From contig OZ242033.1 of assembly GCA_965205155.1 (NCBI GenBank), forward strand, positions 2,299,572 through 2,363,571: a DNA stretch of 64,000 nucleotides, in the 5' to 3' direction. Below, piece after piece: positions 26,510 to 61,701 of this stretch. Each line of letters begins with the position of its first letter. Position 1 is the stretch's first letter. The notes beneath the pieces were generated by a model that saw nothing but the letters and a program-made list of their open reading frames with translations, searched no databases and was not told the origin of the DNA. The position numbers and the translations under genes are program-made. Source of the DNA: Candidatus Aldehydirespirator sp. Lineage in GTDB: Bacteria; Actinomycetota; Acidimicrobiia; Acidimicrobiales; Aldehydirespiratoraceae.

Positions 26510-27738
26510 GTCAGCAGAGCGACTTGGTCCGGGAGCCGGGCCGCGGCGGCTCCGATCCGATCGACGTGGCCGTGGGATTCGCCGGCGCGCTGCGCCGGGC
26601 CGGTCTGGAGGTCTCGCTCACCTCCGCGCTGCTCTACTCGGAAGCACTGTCGGTTTGCGACGTCACCAGCCGCGAGTCGCTGTACTGGGCCGGCCGGTGC
26701 GCGCTGGTCCACCGCTTCGAGGACGTCGGGGTGTACGACGCCGTCTTCGGGGCCTACTGGCTGGGCAAGCCCCTGGGCACGGTCTCACCCACCACCGCGG
26801 TGAGCATCCCGGTGGTGCTGCAGGTCGACGACGCCGGCGACGCCGCCACCGACGAGGAGGAGCCCGGCCGCGACTCCGATGTGATCACCGTTCGCTACAG
26901 CGCCACCGAGACCCTCGCTACCAAGGACTTCGCCGACTACACCGACGATGAGCTCGAAGAGGCCCGCCGGCTGATGGAGCGGCTGAGGTTCCGCAGCCCG
27001 ACTCGGCCCAGCCGCCGTCTCGAGCCGGCCCGGTCGTGCCGGGGCCGCCTGGATGTGCGGCGCACGGTACGGGCCGCCATGCGCTCGGGGGGCGAGCCCA
27101 TGCGCATGCACCGCCGGGTCAGCGGCCGCAGGCCCCGGCGCCTGGTGCTGCTGCTGGACGTGTCGGGGTCGATGGAACGCTACGCCCGGGCTCTACTTCG
27201 CCTGGTCCACGCCGCAGTCGCGGGCCGCAGCCGGGTCGAGGCCTTCGCTCTAGGCACCCGGCTCACCCGGCTCACCCGGGAGTTGTCGTCGCGCGATCCG
27301 GACCGGGCCCTGCGGGCCGCGTCGGATGCAGTCCCCGATTGGAGCGGCGGCACCCGCCTCGGCTCGGGCCTGCGGTCATTCAACGACGAGTGGGGCTGCC
27401 GGGGGATGGCTCGCGGCGCGGTGGTGGTGATCCTCTCCGACGGCTGGGACCGGGGCGATCCGGCCGAGATGTCCGAACAGATGCAGCGCCTCCGCAGGGT
27501 CGCCAATCGGGTGGTGTGGGTGAATCCCCTCAAGGCCTCGCCGGGGTATGCCCCCCTGGCGCGGGGGATGGCCGCGGCCCTGCCGTTCGTGGACGACTTC
27601 GTGGAGGGGCACAACCTGGAGTCGTTGGAACGGTTGGCCGAACTCGTCCTCACCGAGACCGGTCACCGCTCGCGGGGGCCGCGGCCGCACACCGCGGATG
27701 AGGGTCCGGTTCCAGTAGCCGTGGGAGCGGGACAGTGA
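26506..27738 (+). CDS. VWA domain-containing CoxE-like protein
   Basis: LVLLLDVSGSMERYARALL (MIDAS DxSxS), GTRLG, VVILSDGWDRGDP, VVWVNPL. ATGA overlap with moxR. Confidence 0.85.
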   Translation: MSQQSDLVREPGRGGSDPIDVAVGFAGALRRAGLEVSLTSALLYSEALSVCDVTSRESLYWAGRCALVHRFEDVGVYDAVFGAYWLGKPLGTVSPTTAVSIPVVLQVDDAGDAATDEEEPGRDSDVITVRYSATETLATKDFADYTDDELEEARRLMERLRFRSPTRPSRRLEPARSCRGRLDVRRTVRAAMRSGGEPMRMHRRVSGRRPRRLVLLLDVSGSMERYARALLRLVHAAVAGRSRVEAFALGTRLTRLTRELSSRDPDRALRAASDAVPDWSGGTRLGSGLRSFNDEWGCRGMARGAVVVILSDGWDRGDPAEMSEQMQRLRRVANRVVWVNPLKASPGYAPLARGMAAALPFVDDFVEGHNLESLERLAELVLTETGHRSRGPRPHTADEGPVPVAVGAGQ

Positions 27739-27764
27739 AGGGGATCCGGCAGTGAAGGAGATCC
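27731..27764 (+). repeat. 17-nt tandem duplication of the coxE-stop/xdhC-start junction
   Basis: gacagtgaaggggatcc / ggcagtgaaggagatcc (15/17). Mini-ORF GTG 27735..TGA 27755 (VKGIRQ*) ends on the xdhC GTG at 27752. Confidence 0.85.
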
Positions 27765-28867
27765 TCGCCGACCTGGATCGCTGGCGGTCGGGCGGGGAGC
27801 GGGCCGCGGTGGCCCGGGTCGTCGACCTCGAAGGGTCGGGACCGCGCGCTCCCGGCGCGGCGATGGCCGTCACCGCTGAGGCCGAGGTCGTCGGCTCGGT
27901 GTCCGGCGGCTGCGTGGAGGGCGCGGTAGTCACCGAGTCCCTCGAGGTGATCGCTACCGGCGACCGGCGCATCGTCACGTTCGGCTACAGCGACGATGAG
28001 GCCTTCGCGGTCGGGCTCACCTGCGGGGGGACCATCCACTTGTTCGTGGAGCCCCTGGACTGGGGCCCGGTCCATGACGAGCTGGGCTCGGATCTCGCCG
28101 CCGAGTCCCCAGCCGCGCTGGCCACCGTGGTCGAGGGCCCCGGAACGGGCGCCAAGATGCTGGTGCGCCCGGAGGGTCTGGAGACCGTCGGCTCGCTGGG
28201 CAAGCCGGGCCTCGACCGGGCCGTGCAGCGCGACGCCCGCGGCGAGCTGGTCGCGGGCCGTTCGGGCCTGCGCCGCTACTCCACCCACGGCGAGTACTCC
28301 GAGCAGGGCGAGACCTGCGGCGAGGAGGTGGCCGTGTTCGTGGAGTCGTTCGCCCCGCCGCCCCGGATGCTGATCTTCGGCGCGGTGGACTTCACCTCCG
28401 CCCTGGCCCGGGTGGCCAAGGTGCTCGGCTACCGGGTCACGGTGTGCGACGCCCGGTCGGTGTTCGCCACCTCCAAGCGGTTCCCGATGGCCGACGAGGT
28501 GGTGGTCTCATGGCCCGACCGGCTGCTCGACGCAGTGGGGGAGCACCTCGGCCCGCGTGACGCGGTGTGCGTGCTCACCCACGACGCCAAGTTCGATGTG
28601 CCCGCCATCACCTCGGCTCTGGCCACCGATGTCGGCTACATCGGGGTGATGGGCAGCCGCCGCACCCACGACGACCGCACCGGCCGGCTGGTCGAGGCCG
28701 GGGTGACCGGCGAGCAGCTGGCTCGCCTCCGCTCGCCCATCGGCCTCGACATCGGCGCGGCCACCCCCGAGGAGACCGCGGTCTCCATCGTCTCGGAGAT
28801 CATCTCGCTGCGCACCGGCCGCCAGGCCCAAGCTCTCTCAGCCACCACCGGCCCCATCCACGACTGA
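27752..28867 (+). CDS. XdhC/CoxF-family molybdenum-hydroxylase maturation protein
   Basis: AAVARVVDLEGSGPRAPGAAMAV...GSVSGGCVEGAVV (XdhC_CoxI N domain) and a Rossmann-like C-terminal half, LIFGAVDFTSALARVAKVLGYRVTVCD. Confidence 0.85.
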   Translation: MKEILADLDRWRSGGERAAVARVVDLEGSGPRAPGAAMAVTAEAEVVGSVSGGCVEGAVVTESLEVIATGDRRIVTFGYSDDEAFAVGLTCGGTIHLFVEPLDWGPVHDELGSDLAAESPAALATVVEGPGTGAKMLVRPEGLETVGSLGKPGLDRAVQRDARGELVAGRSGLRRYSTHGEYSEQGETCGEEVAVFVESFAPPPRMLIFGAVDFTSALARVAKVLGYRVTVCDARSVFATSKRFPMADEVVVSWPDRLLDAVGEHLGPRDAVCVLTHDAKFDVPAITSALATDVGYIGVMGSRRTHDDRTGRLVEAGVTGEQLARLRSPIGLDIGAATPEETAVSIVSEIISLRTGRQAQALSATTGPIHD

Positions 28868-28894
28868 TCCCGGCCAAACTGCGGCCCGGCACAA

Positions 28895-28917
28895 GTTGTG
28901 TAGCACAAAATACATGT
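28895..28917. promoter_or_regulatory. Two short perfect palindromes (TTGTGTAGCACAA, TACATGTA) in an AT-rich patch; candidate operator
   Basis: Seen directly at 28895-28907 and 28910-28917, in the 214-nt gap between xdhC and the mocA-like gene. The local AT-richness contrasts with the surrounding sequence. Confidence 0.3.
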
Positions 28918-28926
28918 AATGATGCG

Positions 28927-28987
28927 AAGTGCCGGAATGCCGCCCCCCACGCCGTTTGGAGACCGGTGGGGCGGTGCTCCGGCACTT
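28927..28987 (+). other. Long imperfect hairpin (10-bp outer stem AAGTGCCGGA/TCCGGCACTT, inner CCGCCCC/GGGGCGG); possible I-shaped terminator or structured RNA
   Basis: The complementarity can be read directly from the sequence. There is no U tract after it. Confidence 0.4.
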
Positions 28988-29081
28988 GCGTGATATCTAG
29001 TGTAACTTCACTCGCTGCGCCGCGCAACCGGCGGGCGTTACGGTTGGTCCTAGTCGTGCCGGCGGCGGGCAGACTGGGGCG

Positions 29082-30319: not shown

Positions 30320-30454
30320 TCAGCATGGGTGGGCTGCGCCGGCGCGAGTTGCCGGCCGGCTCTCGTTCGCCTTGGCCCGGCATTCGCTTCGAGCAGTAGG
30401 TCTGGGCAAGCCTCGCGAGCGGCTCCAGCTATCGTTTGCTGCTAGTATGAAATC

Positions 30455-30664
30455 ATGGATACAGTACGCACCACCTTTACTCTGGACAGCGAACTGGCCG
30501 AGCAGGCCCGCCGGCTCAACGTGAACGTCTCCGCTGCGGCCCGAGACGGCGTCGCTGCGTCGGTCAGAAGGGCACTGGCGGAGGCCGACAGGCAGGCCTA
30601 CCTGCGTCGTCCGGAGCAGCCCGACGACTTCTGGGAGAAGGCCCAAGCCTGGAGCGATGCATGA
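30455..30664 (+). CDS. Type II antitoxin (ribbon-helix-helix-like, MazE-position)
   Basis: 69 aa, overlapping the toxin gene by ATGA. TAGTAT lies about 7 nt before the ATG, which suggests a leaderless transcript. Confidence 0.6.
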   Translation: MDTVRTTFTLDSELAEQARRLNVNVSAAARDGVAASVRRALAEADRQAYLRRPEQPDDFWEKAQAWSDA

Positions 30665-30972
30665 ACCGCGGCGAGATCTGGTGGACTGAGATCGCCTCGA
30701 AGAGGCGCCCGGTGCTGGTGCTCACCCGTGATGAGGTCATCGCCGTCCGCGAGCTGGTGACCGTCGCCGAGGTCACCACCAGCGGCCGCGGACTCTCCGT
30801 CGAGGTGCCTATCGATTCCGAGATCAGCGGCCTCTCGCGACAGTCGGTCGTCAACTGCGACGGCCTGTACACGGTGAGGCGGTCGACGCTGCGCGAGCTC
30901 GCCGGGCAACTCGACGGCGCAGTCATGGGGCGAATCTGCCGGGCAGTGTCGTACGCGCTGGACTGTCGGTGA
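30661..30972 (+). CDS. mazF: Type II toxin, PemK/MazF family endoribonuclease
   Basis: MNRGEIWWTEIASKRRPVLVLTRDEVI...SVVNCDGLYTV is the characteristic MazF/PemK pattern. 103 aa. Confidence 0.8.
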   Translation: MNRGEIWWTEIASKRRPVLVLTRDEVIAVRELVTVAEVTTSGRGLSVEVPIDSEISGLSRQSVVNCDGLYTVRRSTLRELAGQLDGAVMGRICRAVSYALDCR

Positions 30973-31451
30973 CCACCGCCACCTCCGGCGACGACTACGA
31001 GCAGGTGGCGCAGCTCCTGGGCCGCCCGCCGGCCGGCGATTTCGAGGTGGTGGTCCGGGACGCCTCGGGGTGCCCTGCAGTGATCCGCAACGCTCCGATC
31101 CTGGCCGGCGGGCGGCCCATGCCGACCCGCTACTGGCTGGTCGACGAGCATCTGCGACGCCTAGTCGGGCAGCTGGAGTCCGACGGCGGGGTACGGGCCG
31201 CGGAGGCGGCCGTCGACGCCGCGGAACTGGCCGCGGCCCACGCTCGCTACGGGGCCGAGCGTGACGCAGCCCTGCCCGGCGACCACGACGGGCCGCGTCC
31301 GTCTCACGGCGTGGGGGGCACCCGCCACGGAGTCAAGTGCCTGCATGCCCACTATGCGTGGCATCTGGCCGGCGGCAACGACCCGGTGGGCCGCTGGGTC
31401 GCCGAGCGCCTCGGACCGAGCGCGGCGGCATCCCTTCGGAGGGTGCTGTGA
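30969..31451 (+). CDS. DUF501 domain-containing protein
   Basis: QVAQLLGRPPAGDFEVVVRD...PTRYWLV...GVKCLHAHYAWHLAGGNDPVGRWV. GTGA overlap with the mazF stop. Confidence 0.8.
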   Translation: MTTATSGDDYEQVAQLLGRPPAGDFEVVVRDASGCPAVIRNAPILAGGRPMPTRYWLVDEHLRRLVGQLESDGGVRAAEAAVDAAELAAAHARYGAERDAALPGDHDGPRPSHGVGGTRHGVKCLHAHYAWHLAGGNDPVGRWVAERLGPSAAASLRRVL

Positions 31452-31471
31452 CCGGGAGGGTGCTGTGACCG
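31438..31471 (+). repeat. Exact 17-nt tandem duplication (ggagggtgctgtgaccg x2) of the DUF501-stop/ppx-start junction
   Basis: Copies at 31438-31454 and 31455-31471. Mini-ORF GTG 31448..TGA 31468 (VTGRVL*) ends on the ppx GTG at 31465. Confidence 0.95.
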
Positions 31472-32382: not shown

Positions 32383-32504
32383 GCTGTCCCGGCGGCGCCA
32401 TGCTGCCGCCGAACATGGCCGAACATGAAGGAGTTAACCACCTCAGCGGTGGCAAACCGCTTCATGTTCATCGCCATACGGTCCAAGGACTAGAGTGCGC
32501 GGCC

Positions 32505-36526: not shown

Positions 36527-36568
36527 GCGGCTGAGATTACATCCAGGCTGACAGTCGATTGTTCGCTG

Positions 36569-46051: not shown

Positions 46052-49000
46052 TCATGGTGTCGATCGGGGGGTGGTGGCGGCCCATCGGATGGTGCTGGGC
46101 GACGCGAGGTGGTAGGGGCTCCAGCAGTCGACGGTGCCGTCGGTGCGCAGCCCGCAGGAGTGCTGCTCGCCGGTGGAGAAGCTGCGGAAGGTGCCTGCGA
46201 GGCGCACCATGTAGTCCGACGGGGTCCATCCCCAGCAGATGACGGCGCCGCCGGTGCGCAGCCCGCACGAGTGGCCCCGTCCGGTCGAAACGGCGCTGAA
46301 GGGTCCGGTGACCGTGAAGCCGTCGGGGTCGGCGCCTAGGCCGCCCCAGCATTCGATGTCGCCGCCGGCGGCGACCCCGCAGGTCTGCCACACGCCGGCG
46401 GAGACCGCGCTGAAGGAACCCTCGGGCGCGTCCAGTTGGTGGTCCCGGTTGCTGCCCCAGCACTCGACGGCGCCGTCGGTGCGCAGCCCGCAGGAGTGGT
46501 CCTCGCCTGCCGACACCGCGCTGAAGGCCCCGTCGGGCGCGTCGGCCTGGCCGGAGTAGTTCTTGCCCCAGCACTGCACTGTGCCGGCCGGGTCCAGCCC
46601 GCAGGTGTGGAACGCGCCCGCGGAGACGGCGGTGAAGGCTGCCGGCGGCGGGTCGGACTGCCCGTAGTTGTTGCCGCCGCGCAGGTTGGTCCAGCACTCG
46701 ACAGCGCCGATGGAGAGGATCCCGCAGGTGTGCACGTAGCCCGCGGAGACGGCGGTGAAGGCTGCCGGCGGCGGGCCGGTTCCCGCGGTGCGGTCATGCC
46801 AGCATTCGACGGCGCCGCCGGGGCGCAGCCCGCAGGTGTGGTCCCTGCCGGCCGAGACCGCGACGAACTCGCCGGGGGGCGGCTCGCTCGCCGCGGCGTC
46901 GTTGTGGCCCCAGCAGGACACGGACCCGTCGGCGTGGACCCCGCAGGCGATCGTGCTGCCGACCGACACCGTCGTGTAGCGGCCGGGGGCGGGGACGAAG
47001 CCGGGCCAGAAGTCGTTGATGGCTCCGAGGACGTCCTGGCCCCAGCAGATCACGGAGCGGTCTTCGCGGACCGCGCAGGAGTGGTACTCGCCGGCCGCGA
47101 CCGCCACGAACGTTCCCCGGGGGCTGTTGGCCTGGCCGTACTGGCCGTTGCCCCAGCATTCGACGGTCCCGCCCGCGGCGAGGCCGCATGCGTGCTCGTG
47201 GCCGGCCGACACGGCGGTGAACGCCCCGGCGGGCGGGTCGATGCCGGCGCGGGTGCCCCAGCACTCGACGGCGCCGCTGGGGCGCAGCCCGCAGGCGAGA
47301 TACCGGCCGGTGGAGATCTCGCTGAAGCGTCCCTGGGGCGCCTGGGCGTCCCAGATGGACGTGTCGCCCCAACACTCCGCGGTGGCGTCGCTGCGCAGCC
47401 CGCAGGTGTGCCAGGTCCCCGCCGACACCTGCGTGAAGGCCCCTTCCGGCGGGGCGAGCCGCCCGTCGTGGTCGTCGCCCCAGCATTCGACGGCGCCGCC
47501 GGCGCGCACTCCGCATGAGTGCCACCAGCCGGCCGACACCGACACGAACTCGCCCGAGGGTGCGAAGGCCTTTCCGTACTCGTTGTTCCCCCAGCACGCC
47601 ACCGTTCCGTCCGCGGACAGGCCGCAAGCGTGGGAATCGCCGGCGGAGACCGACTCGAAGCGGGTCACCTCGCGCACCGCGTACACGGCGACAGCCTCGC
47701 CCGAGTCGGCCACCGTCTTGGCGGCGGTTGCGCCGTCGTCGGGCTCGGCCGGGGGCTCGCCGGACCCCGCGCCGGGGTCCGGCGGCGTGAACCAGCGCAC
47801 GAACGGCGGCGCCGGCGTCCACGGGGGGCTCCAGCAGATCAGGGCGCCGCCGGTGCGAAGCCCGCAGGAGTGCCCGCCGCCCGCCGACACGGCGCTGAAG
47901 GCGCCCGCCGGTGCGTCGGCCTGGCCCTCGTCGTTGTTGCCCCAACACGTCAAGGTCTGGTCCGATCTCACGGCGCAGGTGTGGTCGGCCCCGGCGCTGA
48001 CCGACGCGAACGTGCCCGCCGGTGCGTCGCTCTGGCCGTGGTCGTTGTCGCCCCAGCAGTTCAGCGCGCCGTCAGCGTCGAGCGCGCACGAATGCTGCGA
48101 GCCCGTCACCACCGCGCTGAACGTGCCCGGCGGTGCGTCGCTCTGGCCGTGGTCGTTGTCGCCCCAGCATTCGACGGCGCCGCCGGGGCGCAGCCCGCAG
48201 CTGTGGAGGGCGCCCGCCGACACCGAGGCAAAGGCGCCCGCCGGTGCGTCGCTCTGGCCGTGGTCGTTGTTGCCCCAGCATTCGATGTCGCCGCCGGTGC
48301 GCAGCCCGCAGCTGTGGAGGCCGCCGGTCGACACCGAGGAGAAGGTGCCCGCGGGCGCGTCGGCCTGGCCCGTCTCGTTGTATCCCCAGCATTCGACGGT
48401 GGCGTCGGTGCGCAGCCCGCAGTGATGCCAGCCGCTGGAGGTCACCGCGCTGAAGGGACCCGCCGGAGGCTCGTCGAGGATGCCTGGGGGCGGTTCGCTG
48501 TCGTAGAGATCGATGTGGCCCCAGCATTCGACGGTGCCGTCGGGGCGCAGCCCGCAGGAGCGGTCCGATCCCGCTGACACCTCGGTGAAGGCGCCGTGGG
48601 GCGCAGCGACCCGCGCGAACAGCGTCGGGTCACCGCCCCAGCATTCCACGGTGCCGTCGGTGCGCAGCCCGCACGAGAAGAAGAGTCCGGTGGCCACCGC
48701 GGTGAACGCTCCCGCCGGCTCGTCGTCGAAGTCCCAGCATTCCACGGTGCGGTCGGTGCGCAGCCCGCAACTGTAGGTCGAGCCCGCGGAGACGTCGGTG
48801 AAGGCCCCCTCGGGCGGCTGGATCCCGTCGCCGCCGTCGCCCCAGTCGAAGAGGTCCCACTCGGAGTCTCCCCAACAGGCGATCGTCTCGTCGCTGCGCA
48901 GACCGCAGGAGTAGGCGGTGCCGGCAGAGACCCGGCTGAAGGCCCCGCCGGGCGGGTCGGCCTGGCCGTAGTCGTTGTTGCCCCAGCACTCGACGCCACC

Positions 49001-50068
49001 GCCGGCGCGCAGCCCGCATGTGTGCGCTTCACCGGCGGCCAAGTCGATGAAGCTGCCCTCGGGTTCGTCGGCTTGGCCCTCGTCGTTGTCGCCCCAGCAC
49101 TCGACGGCGCCGCCGGGGCGCAGCCCGCAGCTGTGGATCCCGCCGGCGGCCACAGCGCTGAAAGCCCCAGCAGGCGGGCTGGCTTGGCCGTAGTCGTTGT
49201 TGCCCCAGCATTCGACGGCGCCGCCGGCGCGCAGCCCGCAGTTGTGGACGCCGCCCACCGCGACCGACATGAACGACCCCGCTGGGGCCTCGGCGGAGCC
49301 GAAGAGGTTGTTGCCCCAGCATTCGACGCCGCCGTCGGCGAGGATCACGCAGCCGTGGGCGTAGCCCACCGCGAGAACCCTGCCCCCGACAGGATCGGGG
49401 ACCATCGCCGCCGCGGTGTCAGTCGACTGTGCGCCGCCAGCCTCAACGCGGCCATCGGTGTCCGGCGCCGGGTCTGGTTGTCGGCTGTCGGTGTCCGGGC
49501 CCCGGTCTGGTTGCCGGCCGACGGTATCCGGGTCCGGAGCAGGATCCTGGCCGTCGGTGTCCGGGTCCGGAGCAGGATCCTGGCCGTCGGTGCCCGGGTC
49601 CGGAGCAGGATCCTGGCCGTCGGTGCCCGGGTCCGGAGCAGGATCCTGGCCGTCGGTGCCCGGGTCCGGAGCAGGATCCTGGCCGTCGGTGCCCGGGTCC
49701 GGAGCAGGTTGCTCGCCGGCAGTCCCGTCGCTGGTCCCGGTACCGGCGATGTTGCCGTCGCGCTGGTCGGCTCCGACTTCCCCGGCGAGCTGGGACCCAT
49801 CGCGGGAACCCACCGCGCCGTCGGACCCGCAACCGGCGGCGAGGACCGCAGCCGCCACCGCGGCCGCCGCGGCTCTCGCGAGCCGAACTCGCCGACTCGT
49901 GCGGGTCCGAGAGGATGTCCTCGACTCCGTTGGCGCACGGACCCCGGTGACGCAACGAACACGGGACCCCAGCACCCGATCCGCCCGTCGGTGCCCAGCC
50001 CGCAACAGTGGACGCCGCTGCTGTCGGGGTTGTCGCTCCCCACGCCGGACGTGGCGAACAAACCCCAC
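46052..50068 (-). CDS. Giant RCC1-repeat (beta-propeller) lipoprotein, 28 blades
   Basis: 28 occurrences of the H-x-C-G-L-R-x-D/G-G-x-V-E-C-W-G blade signature, counted in the translation. N-terminal SRRVRLARAAAAAVAAAVLAAGCG (twin-Arg-like, lipobox). Start uncertain (GTG 50068 or GTG 49975). Confidence 0.85.
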   Translation of the reverse strand: MGFVRHVRRGERQPRQQRRPLLRAGHRRADRVLGSRVRCVTGVRAPTESRTSSRTRTSRRVRLARAAAAAVAAAVLAAGCGSDGAVGSRDGSQLAGEVGADQRDGNIAGTGTSDGTAGEQPAPDPGTDGQDPAPDPGTDGQDPAPDPGTDGQDPAPDPGTDGQDPAPDPDTDGQDPAPDPDTVGRQPDRGPDTDSRQPDPAPDTDGRVEAGGAQSTDTAAAMVPDPVGGRVLAVGYAHGCVILADGGVECWGNNLFGSAEAPAGSFMSVAVGGVHNCGLRAGGAVECWGNNDYGQASPPAGAFSAVAAGGIHSCGLRPGGAVECWGDNDEGQADEPEGSFIDLAAGEAHTCGLRAGGGVECWGNNDYGQADPPGGAFSRVSAGTAYSCGLRSDETIACWGDSEWDLFDWGDGGDGIQPPEGAFTDVSAGSTYSCGLRTDRTVECWDFDDEPAGAFTAVATGLFFSCGLRTDGTVECWGGDPTLFARVAAPHGAFTEVSAGSDRSCGLRPDGTVECWGHIDLYDSEPPPGILDEPPAGPFSAVTSSGWHHCGLRTDATVECWGYNETGQADAPAGTFSSVSTGGLHSCGLRTGGDIECWGNNDHGQSDAPAGAFASVSAGALHSCGLRPGGAVECWGDNDHGQSDAPPGTFSAVVTGSQHSCALDADGALNCWGDNDHGQSDAPAGTFASVSAGADHTCAVRSDQTLTCWGNNDEGQADAPAGAFSAVSAGGGHSCGLRTGGALICWSPPWTPAPPFVRWFTPPDPGAGSGEPPAEPDDGATAAKTVADSGEAVAVYAVREVTRFESVSAGDSHACGLSADGTVACWGNNEYGKAFAPSGEFVSVSAGWWHSCGVRAGGAVECWGDDHDGRLAPPEGAFTQVSAGTWHTCGLRSDATAECWGDTSIWDAQAPQGRFSEISTGRYLACGLRPSGAVECWGTRAGIDPPAGAFTAVSAGHEHACGLAAGGTVECWGNGQYGQANSPRGTFVAVAAGEYHSCAVREDRSVICWGQDVLGAINDFWPGFVPAPGRYTTVSVGSTIACGVHADGSVSCWGHNDAAASEPPPGEFVAVSAGRDHTCGLRPGGAVECWHDRTAGTGPPPAAFTAVSAGYVHTCGILSIGAVECWTNLRGGNNYGQSDPPPAAFTAVSAGAFHTCGLDPAGTVQCWGKNYSGQADAPDGAFSAVSAGEDHSCGLRTDGAVECWGSNRDHQLDAPEGSFSAVSAGVWQTCGVAAGGDIECWGGLGADPDGFTVTGPFSAVSTGRGHSCGLRTGGAVICWGWTPSDYMVRLAGTFRSFSTGEQHSCGLRTDGTVDCWSPYHLASPSTIRWAATTPRSTP
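49460..49715 (-). repeat. 33-nt tandem coding repeat (five identical units 49528-49692 plus degenerate flanking units) encoding PAPDPGTDGQD
   Basis: ccgggtccggagcaggatcctggccgtcggtgc repeats exactly from 49561 to 49692. The unit at 49528 differs only at its last base. Confidence 0.9.
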
Positions 50069-51480: not shown

Positions 51481-51599
51481 AAAGCGCACCTCCGATCCGC
51501 TGCACCCGACACTACCCCTGCACCCGGCCGGACCGCAACCGGAGACCCCCAAAACACATGACAACTCACAATACGGCACCCCTGAGGGCGCGGATCGGG

Positions 51600-52011: not shown

Positions 52012-52067
<56 letters not shown>

Positions 52068-52656: not shown

Positions 52657-52667
52657 CAGGAGGAACC

Positions 52668-54403: not shown

Positions 54404-54509
54404 GGGGCGCCTCGCTGCGGTTCCGGGGTGGAGGTGCCCGTCGCATCGTGTCGGGCATCTTGGCGCACCGTCGATGCCCGGTGGCGAGGCTCGTCCCGCA
54501 CCATATCAG

Positions 54510-54562
54510 TCCGTGTATTGTCATGCAACTCGACCTCGCCATTCCGTGCAATGTCATGCAAC
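54510..54562 (+). promoter_or_regulatory. Two 20-nt direct repeats (TCCGTGTATTGTCATGCAAC / TCCGTGCAATGTCATGCAAC) 33 nt apart; candidate operator upstream of the cpaB-like operon
   Basis: 17/20 identical, at 54510-54529 and 54543-54562, and 49 nt upstream of the TTG start at 54611. Confidence 0.4.
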
Positions 54563-54610
54563 CCGGCAGCGCCGTTGCGGGCGCTCGGCTGTCTGTAGGA
54601 GGTCGGCGAT

Positions 54611-55765
54611 TTGACCGATGTGAACATTGAGGACGGCCCCGAGGGCCAGGCCGGGGCCGCGCCGGTGGCGGCGACGGCGGAGAAGTCCCGGCGCGGGCTG
54701 CCGGACTCGACCAAGCGGATCCTGTTGATCCTCGCGGGCGTGGTGGTGCTCGCGGGCAGCGTCTACGGCTTCTACTACACCTCCGACGCCTTCGACGACC
54801 GGGTGCCGGTGCTGGTGTCGGCCAGGCGCATCGAGGCGGGCGAGGCGCTGAGCTCCGCCGATTTGACCTCGGACCGGGTGCTGGTCGGGTCGATCCCCCA
54901 CATCGCGTGGACGCCGGACGCTCCGTTCGCGTTCGAGGGCATGGTGGCCACCCAGCCGATCCCGCAGGGCGCGCTCGTCAGCTACGAGATGGTCAAGCTG
55001 GACGAGACCCCCACCGACGGCGTCGTGCTGGAGCTGGACATACCGCTCGATCTGATCATGGCCACCGACGCGGTGGCCGAGGGCGACCCGGTGCTGCTGG
55101 TCGATCCCGGAGCGCCGCCGGTGCCCGGCGACGACGGCCGGCCGCGGCAGGTGGTGCGCCAGTTCGAGCTCACCAACTTCGACGGCTCGCGGATGCAGCT
55201 GTTCCTGGCGCCCGAGGAGTGGGCCGAGTGGGAGGAGCTGGTCGAGGAGGCGGGCGGAACGCTGATGATCGTCGACCTCGAGCTGGGCGACGACGCCGAC
55301 GACGCCGAGGCGCGGCTCAACGCGGTGTGGCAGGCCCAGTGGGACGAGGCGGTGGCCGAGCTGGCCGAGTCGCTGGCCGAGGCGGCGCCCACCGCCGGGC
55401 CGGGCGAACTCGAGATAATCGTGGCCCTCGACGACGGCCTGGTGCCCTCGGGCGTGTCCGAGGGCGACACCGTGCTGCTGGTCGACCCCGGCGAGGCGCC
55501 CGAGGGCAACGACTCGGGCCGTCCCATGGAGGTGATCGGCCTGCTGGAGCTCGACAACTACGCCGACGGCGTGATCCAGATGTTCGTGCCGCCCGAGGAG
55601 TGGCACTACTGGCTCACCCTGCCGGTGCTGCTCGGCGCCGACCCGCTGGTGCTGCCGGTGGCCGAGGGCACCGACGTGGACGACATGGCCGCCCGCCTCA
55701 ACGCCGAGTGGCGGGCCGCCTGGGAGGCCTTCGCGGCCGCGGCCCTGGCGCCGGAGCCGCAGTGA
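54611..55765 (+). CDS. cpaB: CpaB/RcpC-like pilus assembly protein (TM + SAF domain) with internally duplicated C-terminal module
   Basis: TTG 54611 with AGGAGG 8 nt upstream. ILLILAGVVVLAGSVYGFYY TM helix. VPVLVSARRIEAGEALSSADL is SAF-like. Two homologous ~110-aa modules (GDPVLLVDPG...EEWAEWEEL / GDTVLLVDPG...EEWHYWLTL). Confidence 0.7.
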   Translation: MTDVNIEDGPEGQAGAAPVAATAEKSRRGLPDSTKRILLILAGVVVLAGSVYGFYYTSDAFDDRVPVLVSARRIEAGEALSSADLTSDRVLVGSIPHIAWTPDAPFAFEGMVATQPIPQGALVSYEMVKLDETPTDGVVLELDIPLDLIMATDAVAEGDPVLLVDPGAPPVPGDDGRPRQVVRQFELTNFDGSRMQLFLAPEEWAEWEELVEEAGGTLMIVDLELGDDADDAEARLNAVWQAQWDEAVAELAESLAEAAPTAGPGELEIIVALDDGLVPSGVSEGDTVLLVDPGEAPEGNDSGRPMEVIGLLELDNYADGVIQMFVPPEEWHYWLTLPVLLGADPLVLPVAEGTDVDDMAARLNAEWRAAWEAFAAAALAPEPQ

Positions 55766-55882
55766 CCGTCGCCCGCCCGGTTGGGGAGGCGCCGTGCTAG
55801 CGGTGGTCGCCGTCGGGGGCGCAGTGACGGTCGTCCGCTGGGTTGGGGAGGCGCCGTGCTAGCGGTGGTCGCCGTCGGGGAC
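55759..55882 (+). repeat. 62-nt tandem duplication (57/62) of the cpaB-stop/tadZ-start junction
   Basis: Units 55759-55820 and 55821-55882. Each contains cagTGA, GGGGAGG and GTGCTAGCGGTGGTCGCCGTCGGGG. Confidence 0.9.
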
Positions 55883-56890: not shown

Positions 56891-56892
56891 CG

Positions 56893-58488
56893 ATGGTGCT
56901 GCGCGAGGAGATCTGGGAGGCGGTGCTGCCGGAGGTGCGCGAGTTCCGGCTGACCGCCGACGACGAGGACGAGTCGGAGGCCTGCCAGCGGATGGCCGTC
57001 GCCGCCATCCGGACCCGCGAGGCCCGGGCGCTCGACAGCACCGGCGAGATGCTCTCCGACGAGGACCTGGAGTGGGTGTTCGACCAGCTCTCCGCGCTGC
57101 TGGGGGCCGGCCCCATGCAGCGGTTCCTGCGCCGCCGCGACGTGGAGAACATCTACGTGTTCGGGCCGAACTATGCGGTGCTGGGCCTCACCGGCGGGCG
57201 CCAGGAGCATGTGCGCGAGCCGGTGTTCGCCGACGAGGACGAGATGGTCCGCTACATCGCCCACCTGGCCACCACCCACGGCCAGACCGGCCGCCGCTTC
57301 GACCAGTCGGCGCCGCTTTTGGACCTGCGGCTGCGCACCGGCGAGCGCATCTTCGCGGCGATGGCGGTGTGCGGCACCCCGTTCCTGACGGTGCGCTGCC
57401 ACCGCCAGCGGACCATCCGGCTCGAGAACCTGGTGGAGAGCGGGTCGCTGTCGCAGCAGGCCGCCGACTTCCTGCGGGCCGCGGTGCGCCCCCCGGCGCC
57501 GGTGAACATGCTGGTGTGCGGCGCGCTCGGCGCGGGCAAGACCACCCTGCTGCGCGCCCTGCTGGCCGAGATCGGCCCCTCTGAGATCGTGTGCACCCTC
57601 GAGCAGACCTTCGAGCTGTTCCTGGACCAGTCCCATCCGCTGACCTTCGCGGTGGAGACCCGCGAGGCCAACAGCGACGGCTCAGGCGAGATCACCATGG
57701 AGGAGCTGGCCAAGCGGTCGCTGCGCTCGGGCGCCGACCGGGTGATCGTGGGCGAGCTGCGCGGCTCGGAGGCGGCCACGTTCCTCTCCGCGTGCGGCAC
57801 CGGGTCCGACGGCTCGATGGCCACCATCCACGCCTCCTCTCCCCGCCAGGCCATGGCCCGCCTGGTGCGCTACTGCCTCGGCGCCATCGGCGCGCCCGCC
57901 CAGTCGGCGCTGGTGCAGGAGGCCTCCGAGGTGATCCACCTGGTGGCGCACCTGCGGGGCGACCCCCGCACCGGGTTCCGGGGCGTGAACACCATCTCGG
58001 AGGTGCTCAGCTCCGACGGCGACCGCTTCGAACTGCATGACGTGTTCGGGCGCCGCCAGCGCGGCGGCCCCATGACCCTGCTCGGCCGGCCCCGCAGCCC
58101 CGAGGTGATCGAGCGCCTCGCCGAGGGCGGTCTCGACATCTCCGACTGGCCCGAGCACGGCGACGACGCCGACGCGGGGGGCCGGTCCGCGCGGCCGCGG
58201 GCCTTCCCCGGCGACGGTCCTGACGACGGCGGCGACGACGCCGACGCGAGGGGCCGGTCCGCGCAGCCGTGGGCGGTTCCCGGCGACGGCTTCGGTGATG
58301 ACCTCGGCGACGACGCCGGCGCGGGGGCGGGGGGCCGGTCCGCGCGGCCGTGGGCCTTCGGGGGCGATGGTCCTGACGACGGCGGCGACGACGCCGGTGC
58401 GGGGGGCCGGTCCGCGCGGCCGTGGGCGGTTCCCGAGGGCGGCTTCGGTGATGACCTCGGCGACCGCATCTGGCCCGAGGACGGCTGA
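56893..58488 (+). CDS. tadA: CpaF/TadA-family secretion ATPase with repeat-containing acidic C-terminal tail
   Basis: ATG 56893 within track ORF 55843..58488. LVCGALGAGKTTLLRAL Walker A, DRVIVGELRGSEA Walker B region, GSMATIHASS His box. Confidence 0.88.
   Translation: MVLREEIWEAVLPEVREFRLTADDEDESEACQRMAVAAIRTREARALDSTGEMLSDEDLEWVFDQLSALLGAGPMQRFLRRRDVENIYVFGPNYAVLGLTGGRQEHVREPVFADEDEMVRYIAHLATTHGQTGRRFDQSAPLLDLRLRTGERIFAAMAVCGTPFLTVRCHRQRTIRLENLVESGSLSQQAADFLRAAVRPPAPVNMLVCGALGAGKTTLLRALLAEIGPSEIVCTLEQTFELFLDQSHPLTFAVETREANSDGSGEITMEELAKRSLRSGADRVIVGELRGSEAATFLSACGTGSDGSMATIHASSPRQAMARLVRYCLGAIGAPAQSALVQEASEVIHLVAHLRGDPRTGFRGVNTISEVLSSDGDRFELHDVFGRRQRGGPMTLLGRPRSPEVIERLAEGGLDISDWPEHGDDADAGGRSARPRAFPGDGPDDGGDDADARGRSAQPWAVPGDGFGDDLGDDAGAGAGGRSARPWAFGGDGPDDGGDDAGAGGRSARPWAVPEGGFGDDLGDRIWPEDG
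58159..58470 (+). repeat. Four 72-78-nt coding repeats (GDDADAGGRSARPxAxPGDGxxDD) at the TadA C-terminus
   Basis: ggcgacgacgcc recurs at 58159, 58231, 58306 and 58384. The peptide repeats are visible in the translation. Confidence 0.85.
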
Positions 58489-58489
58489 G

Positions 58490-58564
58490 ATGGCGGAGGC
58501 CCCGATCATCGGCGCGCCGGACGCGACGGGCTCCGGATCGGTGCGGGCGGGGGCATCGGGATGA
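58490..58564 (+). other. 24-aa leader mini-ORF; diverged duplicate of the tadB start
   Basis: ATG 58490 lies 1 nt after the tadA TGA. MAEAPIIGA... parallels tadB MIEGLIFGV... Its TGA (58562-58564) overlaps the tadB ATG at 58561. Offset 71 nt. Confidence 0.6.
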
Positions 58565-59469
58565 TCGAGGGCCTGATCTTCGGTGTGCTGGCCACCGCCG
58601 GGCTGGCCCTGGTGGCGCTGTCGGGTGCGCTCAGCCGCCTCCGCGTCCGCCGCAAGGACCAGGACCGCGACGGCAGGGCGGCTCACGCCGCGGCGCGGCG
58701 CGCCTCGGCCAAGGCCACCGGCGCCCAGCGGATCAGCCCGCTGATGGCGGTGCAGCTGGTGGCGGCCGTCGCCGGCGGGATCCTGGGCTGGACCGCTACG
58801 GGCCTGCTGGGGATGATGGTCCTGCTGGGCGGGCTGGGCGCCCTGCTGCCGCCGTTCATGGCCGCGCCCGCCCGCCGGCGCCGCCAGACCCGCCAGGCGC
58901 TGGCGTGGTCGCTGTGGAGCCGCCAGCTGGCCGAGCTGGCCCGGGCCGGCTCGAGCCTGGTCGAGTCGCTGCGCGGCAGCGTCGAGCACGCCCCAGCCGA
59001 GATCACAGCCACCGTCGAGCACGTCGCGGTCACCGCCGAGCTCGAAGGCCTCGAGGAGGCCCTCGACAGCCTCGCCGCCGCCGGCACGGTGTGGGAGCCC
59101 GAGGTGGCCGCCGGCCTGCGCGTGGCCGCCACCTCAGGCGGCGCGGTGGCCGATCCGCTGTTCGACCTGTGCGGCCGCATCGGCGACGTGGTCGACCTGC
59201 ACCGCTCCAAGACTGAAGCTGTGGTTCAGCTTTGGACCCAGACCATCGCGCTGCTGGGCCTGGCCGGCGGGGTGGTGCTGTTGATGTACCGCAACAACCC
59301 GGCCTACTTCGAGCCCTACGAGCAGGGCACCGGCCAGCTCGTGTTCGTCGGCATCGCGGGCCTGCTGCTGCTGTCGACGTCGTTTCTGGTGTACCACTCG
59401 GTGGTCCGCACCGAGAACTCGGTGCTGGTGCCGCCCCGCCGCCGCAGCCGGGCCAAGGACCCGATATGA
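58561..59469 (+). CDS. tadB: TadB-like type II secretion system F-family membrane protein
   Basis: N-terminal TM helix. T2SSF-like region LWSRQLAELARAGSSLVESLRGSVEHAP...GGAVADPLFDLCGRIGDVVDLHRSKTEAVVQLW. C-terminal TM helices. Confidence 0.65.
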   Translation: MIEGLIFGVLATAGLALVALSGALSRLRVRRKDQDRDGRAAHAAARRASAKATGAQRISPLMAVQLVAAVAGGILGWTATGLLGMMVLLGGLGALLPPFMAAPARRRRQTRQALAWSLWSRQLAELARAGSSLVESLRGSVEHAPAEITATVEHVAVTAELEGLEEALDSLAAAGTVWEPEVAAGLRVAATSGGAVADPLFDLCGRIGDVVDLHRSKTEAVVQLWTQTIALLGLAGGVVLLMYRNNPAYFEPYEQGTGQLVFVGIAGLLLLSTSFLVYHSVVRTENSVLVPPRRRSRAKDPI

Positions 59470-59539
59470 GCCCGCGTTCCACCCGGCAGGAAACGCCATG
59501 AGCCCGCGTTCCACCCGGCAGGGGACGCCATGAGCCCGC
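59466..59539 (+). repeat. 32-nt tandem repeat x2.3 at the tadB-stop/tadC-start junction
   Basis: atgagcccgcgttccacccggcagg(aa/gg)acgcc at 59466 and 59498 (30/32), and a third copy atgagcccgc starting tadC at 59530. This gives two 11-aa mini-ORFs, MSPRSTRQ(E/G)TP*, each ending in an ATGA overlap. Confidence 0.95.
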
Positions 59540-60351
59540 TGGTGCTGGGGGCCGCGCTGGCGTTCTTCGCCGGGGTGGTGCTGATCGCGGTCGGCGTGGT
59601 GGGGCCGCCGGAGCGCAGCCGCAGGTCGCAGACCCCCGGCGAGACGCTGCGCGACCTGCTGCCCACCATCAAGGAGGGCGACGAGCAGAACCTGCGCCTG
59701 GCCGGCATCACCCCGGAGTCGTACTCGCTGCAGCGCTTCGGCGGCCTGGTGGTCGGCTTGGCCGTCGGCGCGGTCATCAGCGCGGCCACGGGACGGGGCC
59801 TGGTGGGGGCGGCGCTGCTGTCGGTCGCCGCCGGCGCGGCCGGCTGGGTGCTTCCCATGCTGGGCGTGCGCGACACCGCCAAGAAGGCCCGGGCCGAGAT
59901 CGACCAGGTCATCAGGGTGTGGATCGCGCTGGTGGCCCAGCAGGTGTCGGCCGGGGTGGACCCGTCGGTGGCGATGCTGGCCGCGGCCCGGGTGGGGGAG
60001 CGCAACAGCTGGCGGCTGCTGCACCGGTTCCTGCTCGCCGCGCAGCAGGACCGCCGCCCGGTCTGGGAGGGCCTGGGCGACATGGTCAGCCGCTACGGCA
60101 TCCACACCCTTGCCCCGGCGGTCTCGGCGCTGGGCCTGGCCGCGGAGCGGGGCACCCGCATGGCCGAGGCCATCCTGGTGGCCGCCGACACGCTGTGGCG
60201 CGACGGCACCTCCCGCGAGCGCGAGAAAGCGGCCCGGCGGGCCCAGATCATCGTGGTGCCCGCCACCGGCGTGGCCCTCGCCTTGGCCGGCATCCTCGTC
60301 TACCCGCCGTTCACGTCGCTCACCGGCGGCGGCATCACCAGCCTGCCGTGA
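59530..60351 (+). CDS. tadC: TadC-like type II secretion system F-family membrane protein
   Basis: N-terminal TM helix, then IDQVIRVWIALVAQQVSAGVDPSVAML...AVSALGLAAERGTRMAEAILVAADTL (T2SSF-like) and a C-terminal TM helix. Confidence 0.65.
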   Translation: MSPLVLGAALAFFAGVVLIAVGVVGPPERSRRSQTPGETLRDLLPTIKEGDEQNLRLAGITPESYSLQRFGGLVVGLAVGAVISAATGRGLVGAALLSVAAGAAGWVLPMLGVRDTAKKARAEIDQVIRVWIALVAQQVSAGVDPSVAMLAAARVGERNSWRLLHRFLLAAQQDRRPVWEGLGDMVSRYGIHTLAPAVSALGLAAERGTRMAEAILVAADTLWRDGTSREREKAARRAQIIVVPATGVALALAGILVYPPFTSLTGGGITSLP

Positions 60352-60373
60352 GGCCCGCACCGTGAGCGCCGCC
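60346..60373 (+). repeat. 14-nt tandem duplication (11/14) of the tadC-stop/pilin-3-start junction
   Basis: ccgtgaggcccgca / ccgtgagcgccgcc. Mini-ORF GTG 60348..TGA 60365 (VRPAP*) ends on the pilin-3 GTG at 60362. Confidence 0.6.
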
Positions 60374-60772
60374 GCCGACGCCGGCCTCATCACCCTGGAG
60401 TGGCTCCTCATCGTGGGCGCCGTCGCGGGCCTGGCCGCGTTCTCGGTGCTGGCTGTGCAGCGGGTGATCGACGACACCGCCGAGGCGCCCGCCGACCCGG
60501 TGGTGCGCCTGCTGGAGGCCGACATAGCCGCCGCCTTCGTGGCCTCCGACGCCCAGGCCGACTTCGACGCGGCGGTCAGCGCCGGGAACCCGTCCTCCTA
60601 CGTGGACGGGAACTTCTCAAGTCGCTGCACCGGCGTCCGGACCGACTTCGGCGATGTAGTCGCGAACACGGTCTGGACGCCGCCTGCAGACTCGGGCACG
60701 CCGGCCAATCTCGACGACGACGTGCCCGCGAGGTGCGTGGTCACGCCACAATCGGCGGGCTTGGGGGGCTAG
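60362..60772 (+). CDS. Pilin-like protein 3 (short leader VSAAADAG/LITLEW)
   Basis: GTG 60362. LITLEWLLIVGAVAGLAAFSVLAV, then a ~100-aa domain with a Cys pair (SRCTGVRTDFGD...ARCVVTPQ). Confidence 0.65.
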   Translation: MSAAADAGLITLEWLLIVGAVAGLAAFSVLAVQRVIDDTAEAPADPVVRLLEADIAAAFVASDAQADFDAAVSAGNPSSYVDGNFSSRCTGVRTDFGDVVANTVWTPPADSGTPANLDDDVPARCVVTPQSAGLGG

Positions 60773-60925
60773 GCGATGGCTCTTAGCCCCGTAGGTGCGG
60801 ACAGCGGCCGGCAGCGGGCGGGCGGTTCGGGTCAGCACTCGGGCATGTCGGCGGGGACCGTCAGATCCTGCTGGCCCTGCTGGGGCGGGAGCAGCAGCGC
60901 CGGGCCGGTCGCGGCTGCGAGGGCC

Positions 60926-61558
60926 TCAGCAGGGTGGGAGCTGGGCGGGGATGTCGATCCCTCGCCGGTTGGCGGGGTCGTCGGGCGGCACCAGCAGAGC
61001 GGGGCCTTGAGCAGCCGCGTAGACGCGGTCCCAGCGGTTGGGCCACAGCGCGGCCAGCGGCCCGAACACCTCGCCGGAGACCACCACGCGCACCCACCCC
61101 GCCTCGTCGGCGACGGGCCTGCGGCTGCCCGGCGGACCGCTGGGATCCCCTCGAGGATTGAAGCACCAGTCGCTGTGCACCTCGGCCACGCCCGGTGTCC
61201 ACCAGCGCCATCCGCCCTCGGTGGCCGCCGCCCGGGCCACCGCGTCCTCGGCTGCCGCGGCCATGGCGAGCACGTCCGGATGCGGCTCGTCGGCCTCATA
61301 GAGGTTCCCGGTGTTCGGGTCGGTCAGGAAGTCGGAGCCGGCGGCGGCGCGCCATGCCGAGCGCAGGCCCTGCGACGCGGCCAGCTCGGCCTCGGAGCGG
61401 GCGTTGGTGACGATGAACGCGTGCACCAGCAGCAGCAGGATCGCGGTGATCAGCGCGGGCCACACCACCAGCAGGGCCAGTGTCTCGCCCCGCTCGTCGC
61501 GCCTCCTGCGAACTGGCGGCCGGCCTGCGGCGGCTCCGCGTCGCAACACGACCGCCAC
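60926..61558 (-). CDS. TadE/TadG-like pseudopilin family protein
   Basis: GTG 61558 (GGAGGG 12 nt upstream) within track ORF 60926..61714. RRRRDERGETLALLVVWPALITAILLLLVHAFIV resembles the ERG-x-hydrophobic N-terminus of TadE/G-like proteins. Confidence 0.55.
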   Translation of the reverse strand: MAVVLRRGAAAGRPPVRRRRDERGETLALLVVWPALITAILLLLVHAFIVTNARSEAELAASQGLRSAWRAAAGSDFLTDPNTGNLYEADEPHPDVLAMAAAAEDAVARAAATEGGWRWWTPGVAEVHSDWCFNPRGDPSGPPGSRRPVADEAGWVRVVVSGEVFGPLAALWPNRWDRVYAAAQGPALLVPPDDPANRRGIDIPAQLPPC

Positions 61559-61595
61559 GATACCGCCGGCGCCCTCCGGCGTCGGCAAGGACAGA

Positions 61596-61701
61596 CCCGA
61601 GGCGACCATCTGGAGGTGGCCCCATGAACGCAAGGACTTACCCGCTGCGACCCGGCGCGAGCACTTTCCCGAGGCGACCATCTGGAGGTGGCCCCATGAA
61701 C
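61596..61701 (+). repeat. 72-nt-period in-frame duplication of the RBS/start region of the PBP1 lipoprotein gene
   Basis: The identical 34-mer cccgaggcgaccatctggaggtggccccatgaac occurs at 61596 and 61668. ATG codons at 61624 and 61696 are in frame. Confidence 0.9.

Follow-up and report, generated by a model that had tools for sequence, protein, structure and literature searches.

Mycobacterial interspersed repetitive units (MIRUs), which form variable-number tandem repeats (VNTRs) in Mycobacterium tuberculosis (Supply et al., 1997), are tandem units of 40–100 bp located between co-directional genes of operons. Each unit contains a small open reading frame (ORF) overlapping the flanking stop and start codons by 4 nt, by which translational coupling is thought to be kept, and the copy number varies among strains. 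MIRUs constitute one dispersed family of about 40–50 related copies with flanking tetranucleotide direct repeats, and a mobile nature has been proposed for them (PMC12548453; PMC3184786). The 12 standard MIRU-VNTR loci have, by name, unit lengths of 53 bp (seven loci), 77 bp (two), 54 bp (two) and 51 bp (one) (PMC3558156). If repeat periods are classed by their remainder modulo 3, nine of these lengths are 3n+2, three are 3n and none is 3n+1. Coupling at ATGA or GTGA overlaps is described, in passages of three papers, as needing overlaps or very short spacers (PMC6728339; PMC10666635; PMC12548453). In addition, short upstream ORFs (uORFs) deliver ribosomes to a downstream gene (reviewed in PMC12548453), as does the uORF of iraD (PMC5574718). 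Repeats of similar geometry occur at gene junctions in a stretch of 64,000 nt from the sponge-associated actinobacterium Candidatus Aldehydirespirator sp. (contig OZ242033.1 of assembly GCA_965205155.1, positions 2,299,572 to 2,363,571 of the forward strand; hereafter the window), whose G+C content is about 70%. These junction repeats are analyzed here.

Eight junctions of the window (J1–J8, Table 1) had been listed in an earlier note as carrying local duplications of the stop/start region, and their positions, identities and mini-ORFs all matched on re-inspection. An unbiased scan retrieved the stronger cases and added a ninth case, J9. It is likely that the repeats are locus-specific minisatellites created at translation starts and filtered by reading frame. 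The observation of the earlier note is real and has been extended, and its interpretation is partly supported, being right in its core and in need of generalizing.

Repeat periods at gene starts

Genes were called with a codon model trained on the window itself, which replaced a GC3-threshold filter found to be too strict, and junction genes were annotated with Pfam. The comparison set comprised 121 related loci (1.89 Mb), labelled L001–L121. The relatives of the window are metagenome-assembled genomes (MAGs) of Acidimicrobiia, mostly sponge-associated, including Ca. Aldehydirespirator, Poriferisodalis and Poriferisocius. Start-duplication events were collected with an automated classifier and curation by eye; the classifier overlooked multi-copy arrays (J5, L042) and took the shortest period, masking the 74-nt period of L008.

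Across 1.9 Mb of related loci, start-duplicating events are distributed 13:9:1 over the classes 3n+2, 3n and 3n+1 (n = 23; chi-square p = 0.008; 3n+2 versus 3n+1, binomial p = 0.002). In the control class of junction and intergenic repeats, in which no start is duplicated, the periods are uniform (16:18:18 in the same order), and the two distributions differ with a Fisher p of 0.003, or 0.012 on a conservative count. A genome-wide census against background repeats had been suggested in the earlier note as a check, and the outcome in these loci, with classes unequal at starts and uniform in controls, agrees with what was claimed there. Intragenic repeats are distributed 90:0:2 over 3n, 3n+1 and 3n+2, and 29 of the 32 intragenic repeats of the window have a 3n period. 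Direct repeats scoring at least 13 number 84 in the real window versus about three per codon-block shuffle.

The absence of 3n+1 periods at start junctions of the window also stands, the only 3n+1 repeats there being an exact 10-nt tandem (32408–32427) and two chance-level matches of score 12. This tandem (GCCGAACATG in two copies) is located away from any start, upstream of a GNAT gene in intergenic DNA of low GC3, and coincides in part with one arm of an inverted repeat, GAACATGAAG(29 nt)CTTCATGTTC, that could be an operator. The selective filter on period proposed earlier is supported to the extent that 3n+1 is depleted in the related loci with a uniform control, whereas the window alone gives p of about 0.06.

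Two candidate 3n+1 counter-examples were rejected. The 43-nt period of L025 belongs to an intergenic array of the dispersed element described below, and the 37-nt duplication of L028 contains a stop codon; a start is duplicated in neither.

Several points weigh against a frame filter acting on duplicated starts. The probability of finding no 3n+1 period among the seven window events is 0.06, which is not significant for the window on its own. One clear 3n+1 start event exists, a 19-nt unit in two copies nested in a 92-nt relay of L002, and one more 3n+1 candidate is too ambiguous to be counted as a clear event. Gene starts were derived from our own codon-model caller, the event list is partly eye-curated, the start events are only 23 and orthologous junctions among them cannot be counted as fully independent. 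The 3n class is of mixed composition, with brief inspection only for some of its members. Translation of the mini-ORFs, as well as reinitiation after them, is inferred from sequence. Furthermore, the share of repeats that contain a start is 5/7 in the window (non-intragenic, score at least 15) versus about 5/40 in distant relatives. The density of start duplications in the window is unexplained by a pure tolerance filter and leaves room for positive selection or local mutational bias.

Frame asymmetry and relay ORFs between genes

Stops occur at 2.29 per 100 codons in the +1 frame of window genes and at 0.72 per 100 in the +2 frame, and the median distance from the start to the first stop is 19 nt in the former and 281 nt in the latter. 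High-GC genes are TGA-rich in the +1 frame because of NTG-A codon pairs. L002 exemplifies an open +2 frame, with an internal out-of-phase ATG followed by more than 288 codons free of stops. Recomputation of the mini-ORF ends confirmed the frame arithmetic given earlier, by which a 3n+2 period at an NTGA junction closes the extra ORF on the next NTGA. Kept stop/start coupling, to which the earlier note attributed the pattern, accounts for NTGA junctions, but IspE, J3, L011 and L010 lie outside it. The cause is more general than NTGA coupling, namely a +1 frame rich and a +2 frame poor in stops. This asymmetry covers the non-NTGA starts (J3, L011), IspE without an upstream gene and the 3′-tail duplications of L010.

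It is proposed that slippage during replication or unequal recombination would copy a segment of 14–104 nt in tandem. This stretch would comprise the ribosome-binding region and the start codon and, at overlapping NTGA junctions, the upstream stop too, and its copy number may subsequently expand and contract. Since each upstream copy would keep a usable start, survival would hinge on the period. With a period of 3n+2, the extra start would lie in the +1 frame of the next copy and be closed by the NTGA or another early +1 stop; the resulting mini-ORF of 5–33 codons would end on or a few nt from the next start, where a termination–reinitiation relay could hand on the ribosomes. With a period of 3n, an N-terminal extension would be read in frame, or the copies would lie within a bridging ORF, its stop unmoved. 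With a period of 3n+1, ribosomes in the stop-poor +2 frame would run about 90 codons over the true start, and such alleles would be purged. Any insert between coupled genes would be equally constrained, and spacers would last if a bridging ORF joins the upstream stop to the downstream start. A spacer without relay would be costly because coupling, as the passages cited above describe it, depends on an overlap or a very short gap.

At every relay step examined, stop and start either overlap or are only a few nt apart. An overlap of 4 nt is found at both mini-ORF ends in J1, J2, J5, J9, L007, L025, L042 and L064, and the mini-ORFs of J3 and L011 end on stops 4–7 nt past non-NTGA starts.

Inserts between coupled genes were compared at TadB/TadC, the site of J5. 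The junction is a bare ATGA overlap, its ancestral state, in L004, L005, L006, L009, L010, L013 and L014. All seven insert-bearing lineages keep a complete relay, with inserts of 2×32, 44, 92, 122, 101, 140 and 89 nt. Six of the seven inserts form one open ORF from NTGA to NTGA at 3n+2, and four are unrelated in sequence; long inserts are found in L003, L007, L011 and L016. A second junction with recurrent frame-preserving spacers is Pth/Mfd. In L042–L121 its genes overlap directly in 9 lineages and are joined by a relay in 12 others. Relay ORFs of 2–18 aa occur at 12 of 15 spaced junctions (examples in Table 1), and 11 of the 12 end exactly on the NTGA of the in-frame Mfd start.

More broadly, 575 co-directional junctions with gaps of 12–300 nt were surveyed. 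Where an NTG lies on the upstream stop (161 junctions), stop-to-start distances are distributed 73:51:37 over 2, 0 and 1 mod 3 (p = 0.002), and a single bridging ORF is present at 54 of the 161 versus 23 expected; at the 414 junctions without such an NTG the distance is uniform mod 3. The TadB/TadC inserts, the Pth/Mfd spacers and the bias of the 161 junctions directly support selection for the relay.

These data bear on the view that no selection is involved, and that chance, a mutational length preference (e.g., 17-nt slippage) or a codon-phase composition favoring 3n+2 offsets produced the pattern. The window alone is indeed not significant, and 17 nt recurs in J1, J2, J9, L010, L042, L061 and the ambiguous L050. 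Codon phases also align at 3n+2 across an NTGA overlap, which may inflate weak likenesses such as J6. This view is nevertheless very unlikely. Non-start repeats of the same loci, 17-nt units included, are uniform over periods, and single-copy relatives validate the strong cases, so that these are no phase artefact. Moreover, unrelated TadB/TadC inserts of 44–140 nt keep both the 3n+2 length and an open frame in at least five independent states ((1/3)^5 = 0.004 at most), and the distance bias is confined to junctions with NTG on the upstream stop. Selection rather than mutation is inferred as the cause of the period bias.

Local origin and copy number of the junction repeats

Table 1. Junction repeats of the window, copies of a dispersed element and examples of Pth/Mfd relays in related loci.
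Feature	Position	Strand	Repeat and location	Starts, stops and relay ORFs
J1	27731..27764	+	17-nt tandem duplication (15/17) of CoxE-VWA stop/XdhC start overlap	Mini-ORF VKGIRQ, 27735–27755 (GTG 27735 to TGA 27753–55), overlying XdhC true start GTG 27752
J2	31438..31471	+	Exact 17-nt (17/17) tandem duplication: Shine–Dalgarno sequence (SD) GGAGG and GTGA of DUF501 stop/Ppx-GppA start	Mini-ORF VTGRVL, 31448–31468, ending on GTGA of Ppx true start GTG 31465
J3	55759..55882	+	62-nt unit x2 (57/62) between CpaB (SAF domain) and TadZ-like gene	CpaB stop 55763–65; relay ORFs 55762–55800 (12 aa) and 55794–55862 (22 aa); TadZ-like start GTG 55856
J4	58490..58564	+	24-aa bridging ORF	From TadA stop (58486–88) + 1 nt to ATGA of TadB start (58561)
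J5	59466..59539	+	32-nt unit x2.3 (30/32) between TadB stop (ATGA 59466) and TadC start (ATG 59530)	Two 11-aa relay ORFs MSPRSTRQxTP, 59466–59501 and 59498–59533, ATGA to ATGA
J6	60346..60373	+	14-nt repeat (11/14), TadC stop/start of next small gene (GTG 60362)	Formal mini-ORF VRPAP
J7	7066..7120	+	In-frame 36-nt minisatellite (12 aa, MTGSQPGSAPPA), RsmI N-terminal leader	Array begins at ATGA 7072, overlapping DUF192 stop; second ATG 7108
J8	61596..61701	+	34-nt exact direct repeat, 72-nt spacing; 45/72 overall	ATG 61624 and ATG 61696, in frame
J9 (new)	14530..14574	+	17-nt unit x3 at start of GHMP-kinase (IspE-like) gene	Relay ORFs of 6 aa, 14532–14552 (VIEALM) and 14549–14569 (VIEAAV), each ending on next GTGA; true start GTG 14566
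Dispersed-element window copies	3860-3897(-), 9753-9790(+), 12127-12164(+), 21410-21447(+), 21454-21490(+), 25455-25492(-)	As marked		
Pth/Mfd relay examples	L050 9886-9938; L057 2630-2658; L060 9934-9959			

The nine junctions differ in strength. J1, J2, J3, J5 and J7 are solid repeats, and J1 and J2 are true duplications because both are single-copy in relatives. Among the six 3n+2 cases listed earlier, J1, J2, J3 and J5 thus hold, and J4 is plausible as an old duplication. For its start-to-start alignment (22/31 and 38/71), the fraction of phase-matched coding windows that did as well was only 6e-5 and 6e-4. J6 is indistinguishable from chance, its level of identity being attained at about 2% of random positions, and is to be dropped. 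Of the two 3n cases, J7 was confirmed as an in-frame leader minisatellite, and J8 turned out to be an A-B-A repeat rather than a clean tandem.

Outside the Tad-like locus, Pfam identified the junctions as CoxE-VWA/XdhC (J1), DUF501/Ppx-GppA (J2) and DUF192/RsmI (J7). In ten relatives whose XdhC is 87–92% identical, the J1 junction is a single CAGTGAAGGAGATCC with a 4-nt overlap, as read from sequence in L023–L030 and from gene coordinates in L040 and L041. J2 is likewise single-copy, a plain NTGA overlap, in eight of these ten relatives. As the relatives' plain overlaps each hold exactly one unit copy, both 17-nt duplications arose in the lineage of the window. Exact-protein look-ups of the window XdhC and DUF501 gave no match to a second assembly of the same species. 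At the XdhC junction of L042 six 17-nt units are present, with linker bases that differ from those of the window, and the copy number there is 1, 2 or 6 among lineages. The same 17-nt period arose separately in the window and L042, a case of convergence.

Near J2, the window has an inserted CcdA-like antitoxin and PemK/MazF-like toxin pair (30455–30972), with CoxG on one side and DUF501 on the other. The stop of the toxin gene and the start of DUF501 share 4 nt, and the pair is missing from all eight relatives examined.

At J7 only the first 19 nt of the unit are repeated in the window (22/36 overall). Two and three full units are found on contigs whose RsmI is identical to that of the window, and the unit count is 1, 2 or 3 among contigs with identical or near-identical RsmI, within one species. 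In L038 the RsmI leader is unrepeated and of equal 16-codon length. J9 precedes an IspE-like gene without a co-directional upstream gene. Its three copies and relay are intact in L031, L033 and L034, and L037 and L038 have a single copy; the triplication is common to relatives with RsmI 93–100% identical, and the junction is single-copy at 82–89%.

The Tad-like locus holds five of the eight junctions of the earlier note (J3–J6 and J8), as was pointed out there. It comprises a SAF/CpaB protein, a TadZ-like gene, a T2SSE ATPase, T2SSF proteins and small genes. Pfam matched SAF, T2SSE and one T2SSF domain, gave no match for the TadZ-like gene, the TadC-like gene or the small genes, and identified no pilin or prepilin peptidase among the genes of the locus. 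The TadZ-like, TadC-like and small Tad genes are syntenic across 16 relatives. The J3 unit contains the GTGA, an SD and the first eight TadZ codons, and both mini-ORFs end within the next GTGCTAG, on the TAG whose first base lies 4 nt downstream of that of the GTG. Two copies in the window compare with four in L001, where the relay is intact. The J4 region, conserved in L001, has a 38/71 identity at the 71-nt offset and a 5′ end resembling that of TadB (MAEAPIIG versus MIEGLIFG), and is probably an old, diverged 71-nt duplication. J8, which is identical in L001, includes the 3′-terminal part of the small Tad gene upstream, the SD GGAGG and the ATGA. It is a solid repeat of A-B-A form and provides a possible 24-aa N-terminal extension of a periplasmic-binding-protein gene.

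The TadZ-like start GTGCTAG is conserved in L001, L002, L003, L005, L006, L007 and L016 and reads ATGCTAG in L010. The +1-frame TAG directly after it is the terminus of bridging ORFs from the CpaB side, such as one of 49 aa with 42-nt repeats in L002. The TadA/CpaF ATPase is extended at its C terminus by in-frame 72-nt and 153-nt repeats (58158–58464), and TadA of most relatives aligns only to about residue 420–436 of 531.

Comparable duplications recur in the related loci. The enolase junction has 35-nt units, x1.7 in L026 and x3.7 in L025 (copies 1, 2 and 4 in L023, L026 and L025, respectively). The TadA start is duplicated over 98 nt in L007 and 74 nt in L008. Other duplications measure 104 nt (L011), 74 nt (L003), 20 nt (L064) and 17 nt (L061). 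In nine loci (L003, L007, L008, L011, L025, L026, L042, L061 and L064) the first residues of the mini-ORFs resemble the beginning of the downstream protein, and the mini-ORFs terminate on the next start or just past it. L010 carries a 3′-tail duplication with the same period preference. Sister-genome comparison, suggested in the earlier note for dating the events, yielded both single-copy ancestral junctions and copy-number variants.

The units consist of the adjacent genes' own sequence, i.e., N-terminal codons of the downstream gene and the 3′ end of the upstream gene. Filled sites hold duplicated native sequence rather than foreign DNA, and the 'empty' sites of relatives correspond to one unit. 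When every unit of J1–J5 and J7–J9 was searched with blastn-short against the window and 22 loci, only matches to itself and to the orthologous site were returned. The units therefore do not form a dispersed family, since copies elsewhere in this set are lacking. Comparison with relatives shows the repeats to be locally generated minisatellites of variable copy number.

This evidence also makes it highly improbable that the units are copies of a small mobile element of MIRU type inserting at NTGA junctions. Such an element would fit the geometry, because MIRUs share the ORF overlapping the flanking stop and start, the 3n+2 periods and the VNTR behavior, and a genuine dispersed element with tandem arrays at gene ends exists in this clade. 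However, the units of J1–J5 and J7–J9 are made of codons of the adjacent genes and are absent from other sites, and relatives hold exactly one copy as the native junction. The dispersed element is unrelated to them in sequence, and its arrays (43, 44 and 101 nt) follow no period rule.

The dispersed element is intergenic, about 50 nt long (consensus GCGAGGCCGTGGCCCGAGCGGCCCGTGAGCGmAGCGAACAAGAGCGGGA) and always at gene ends, with copies about 95% identical. It is common in the clade (14 core copies in L025, 8 in L038 and 4 in L037) and matched no Rfam family. Mfd (stop 21469–71) and an RsmA-like gene (stop 12142–44) both terminate at the TGA inside the element, which is missing at the Mfd end in L023 and L024. 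Tandem arrays have periods of 43, 44 and 101 nt, L025 containing an x3 array and a 101-nt unit x9. The 44-nt repeat at 21410..21490 (+), considered as a tenth 3n+2 case, consists of two adjacent copies of this element at the Mfd 3′ end and was left out of the census.

Mis-assembly of short repeats could in principle create extra copies, as the sequences come from MAGs and metagenome contigs and no second same-species assembly was matched for J1 and J2. The chance of this is practically negligible. J3, J4, J5-type repeats, J6 and J8 recur in the independent assembly L001, and J7 and J9 in four independent metagenome assemblies. Reads are longer than the repeats, the copies differ by point substitutions (15/17, 57/62) and analogous arrays occur in dozens of unrelated assemblies.

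It has also to be considered whether the duplications are positively selected, each unit adding a ribosome-loading site or SD and shifting the translation ratio of the neighbors, so that they act as reversible rheostats set by copy number (contingency loci), above all in the Tad pilus operon. Start duplications make up 5/7 of the strong non-intragenic window repeats versus about 10–30% under a uniform model, arrays grow to 4–6 copies, the XdhC junction was struck independently with the same period and Tad junctions are affected in many lineages. By eye, duplicated early codons of J1, L042 and J9 (AAGGAG/AAGGGG, GAGG) fall 7–8 nt upstream of the next start and resemble an SD. Such adaptive tuning is nonetheless rather unlikely. 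The proposal is drawn from sequence, housekeeping junctions (Ppx, IspE, RsmI and enolase) are affected too, start duplications in distant relatives are no commoner than expected and the frame filter alone explains the period bias. It would be less likely still that high-GC bacteria in general use junction minisatellites as a translational rheostat, both heritable and reversible, in which 1–6 units tune stoichiometry, for instance of a sponge-symbiont Tad pilus. Selection would then favor duplications of the start region, as relay mini-ORFs would reset the number of ribosomes reaching the next gene, and a targeted mutational process at starts would also account for the independent 17-nt period at one junction.

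Other repeats of the window are of different kinds. A large repeat protein (46052–49858, −) has ~111-nt (37-aa) repeats throughout, including a near-perfect 33-nt x5.8 array (49516–49708). A perfect (TC)21 microsatellite (52015–52057) lies in a 765-nt intergenic region. Ordinary 3n coding repeats are found inside the genes 1482–2714(−) (in-frame 24/48-nt repeats, 2464–2580) and 10649–11251(+) ((CACGAC)n-like array, 10858–10944). Rfam at the gathering threshold detected no RNA family at any junction, its matches being only two tRNAs and ASdes, a TB sRNA. The ASdes match (6048–6115, −; 42.6 bits versus a gathering score of 40) is antisense within a fatty-acid desaturase gene and probably reflects conserved desaturase coding sequence.

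Comparison with known systems

If the frame filter is true, it gives a simple rule for the insertions and duplications tolerated at operon junctions of high-GC genomes and accounts for MIRU-VNTR units of 53 or 77 bp. It would also show that local sequence can give rise de novo to an architecture like that of MIRUs, with no mobile element needed, and would identify non-coding relay ORFs as a class that gene callers will mis-annotate as N-terminal extensions or small genes. In addition, the natural allelic series of 1–6 units may be used to gauge the efficiency of termination–reinitiation, and strains of uncultured sponge symbionts could be typed by these hypervariable repeats.

A literature search for a period-mod-3 rule at junction repeats, or for locally generated start-site minisatellites, returned the MIRU precedent only. 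No general description besides MIRU was known to the earlier note either, and none was found here, although the period rule is already implicit in the MIRU-VNTR unit sizes. As in MIRUs, the window repeats lie between co-directional operon genes in the same orientation (with the exception of J9, at a first gene), contain a small ORF overlapping the flanking stop and start by 4 nt and vary in copy number. MIRUs, however, share a dispersed consensus and arrive by insertion, whereas each unit here is unique to its locus, copied from adjacent genes, and the sites are filled with duplicated native sequence. Units of only 17 nt occur, the hosts belong to the Acidimicrobiia and the frame logic extends to a first gene without upstream partner (IspE).

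The ancestral junctions resemble the canonical 4-nt overlaps of termination–reinitiation, and the mini-ORFs recreate this overlap at each relay step. As far as the passages cited above go, known studies concern single junctions of real genes, without chains of relay ORFs made by duplication or a period rule. The mini-ORFs are also similar to uORFs, being short, without a conserved peptide and with a stop overlapping the start of the main gene. Known uORFs are single, fixed and regulatory, while those described here are recent copies of a gene's 5′ end, tandem and polymorphic. In-frame coding minisatellites (3n VNTRs) of surface and low-complexity proteins have counterparts in the N-terminal leaders of J7, L023 (18 nt), L037 (24 nt) and L079 (18 nt). 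The units here differ in that they also carry the start codon and the NTGA of the upstream stop, and each in-frame copy could be an alternative initiation site.

According to the ambush hypothesis, off-frame ('hidden') stops limit the cost of frameshifted translation. The gain from early termination of out-of-frame ribosomes is common to both settings, but the principle is applied here to the survival of gene-start duplications, not to ribosomal slippage. Taken together, the period principle is not new, given the MIRU sizes and the 4-nt coupling in the literature; its locus-specific, locally generated form is new.

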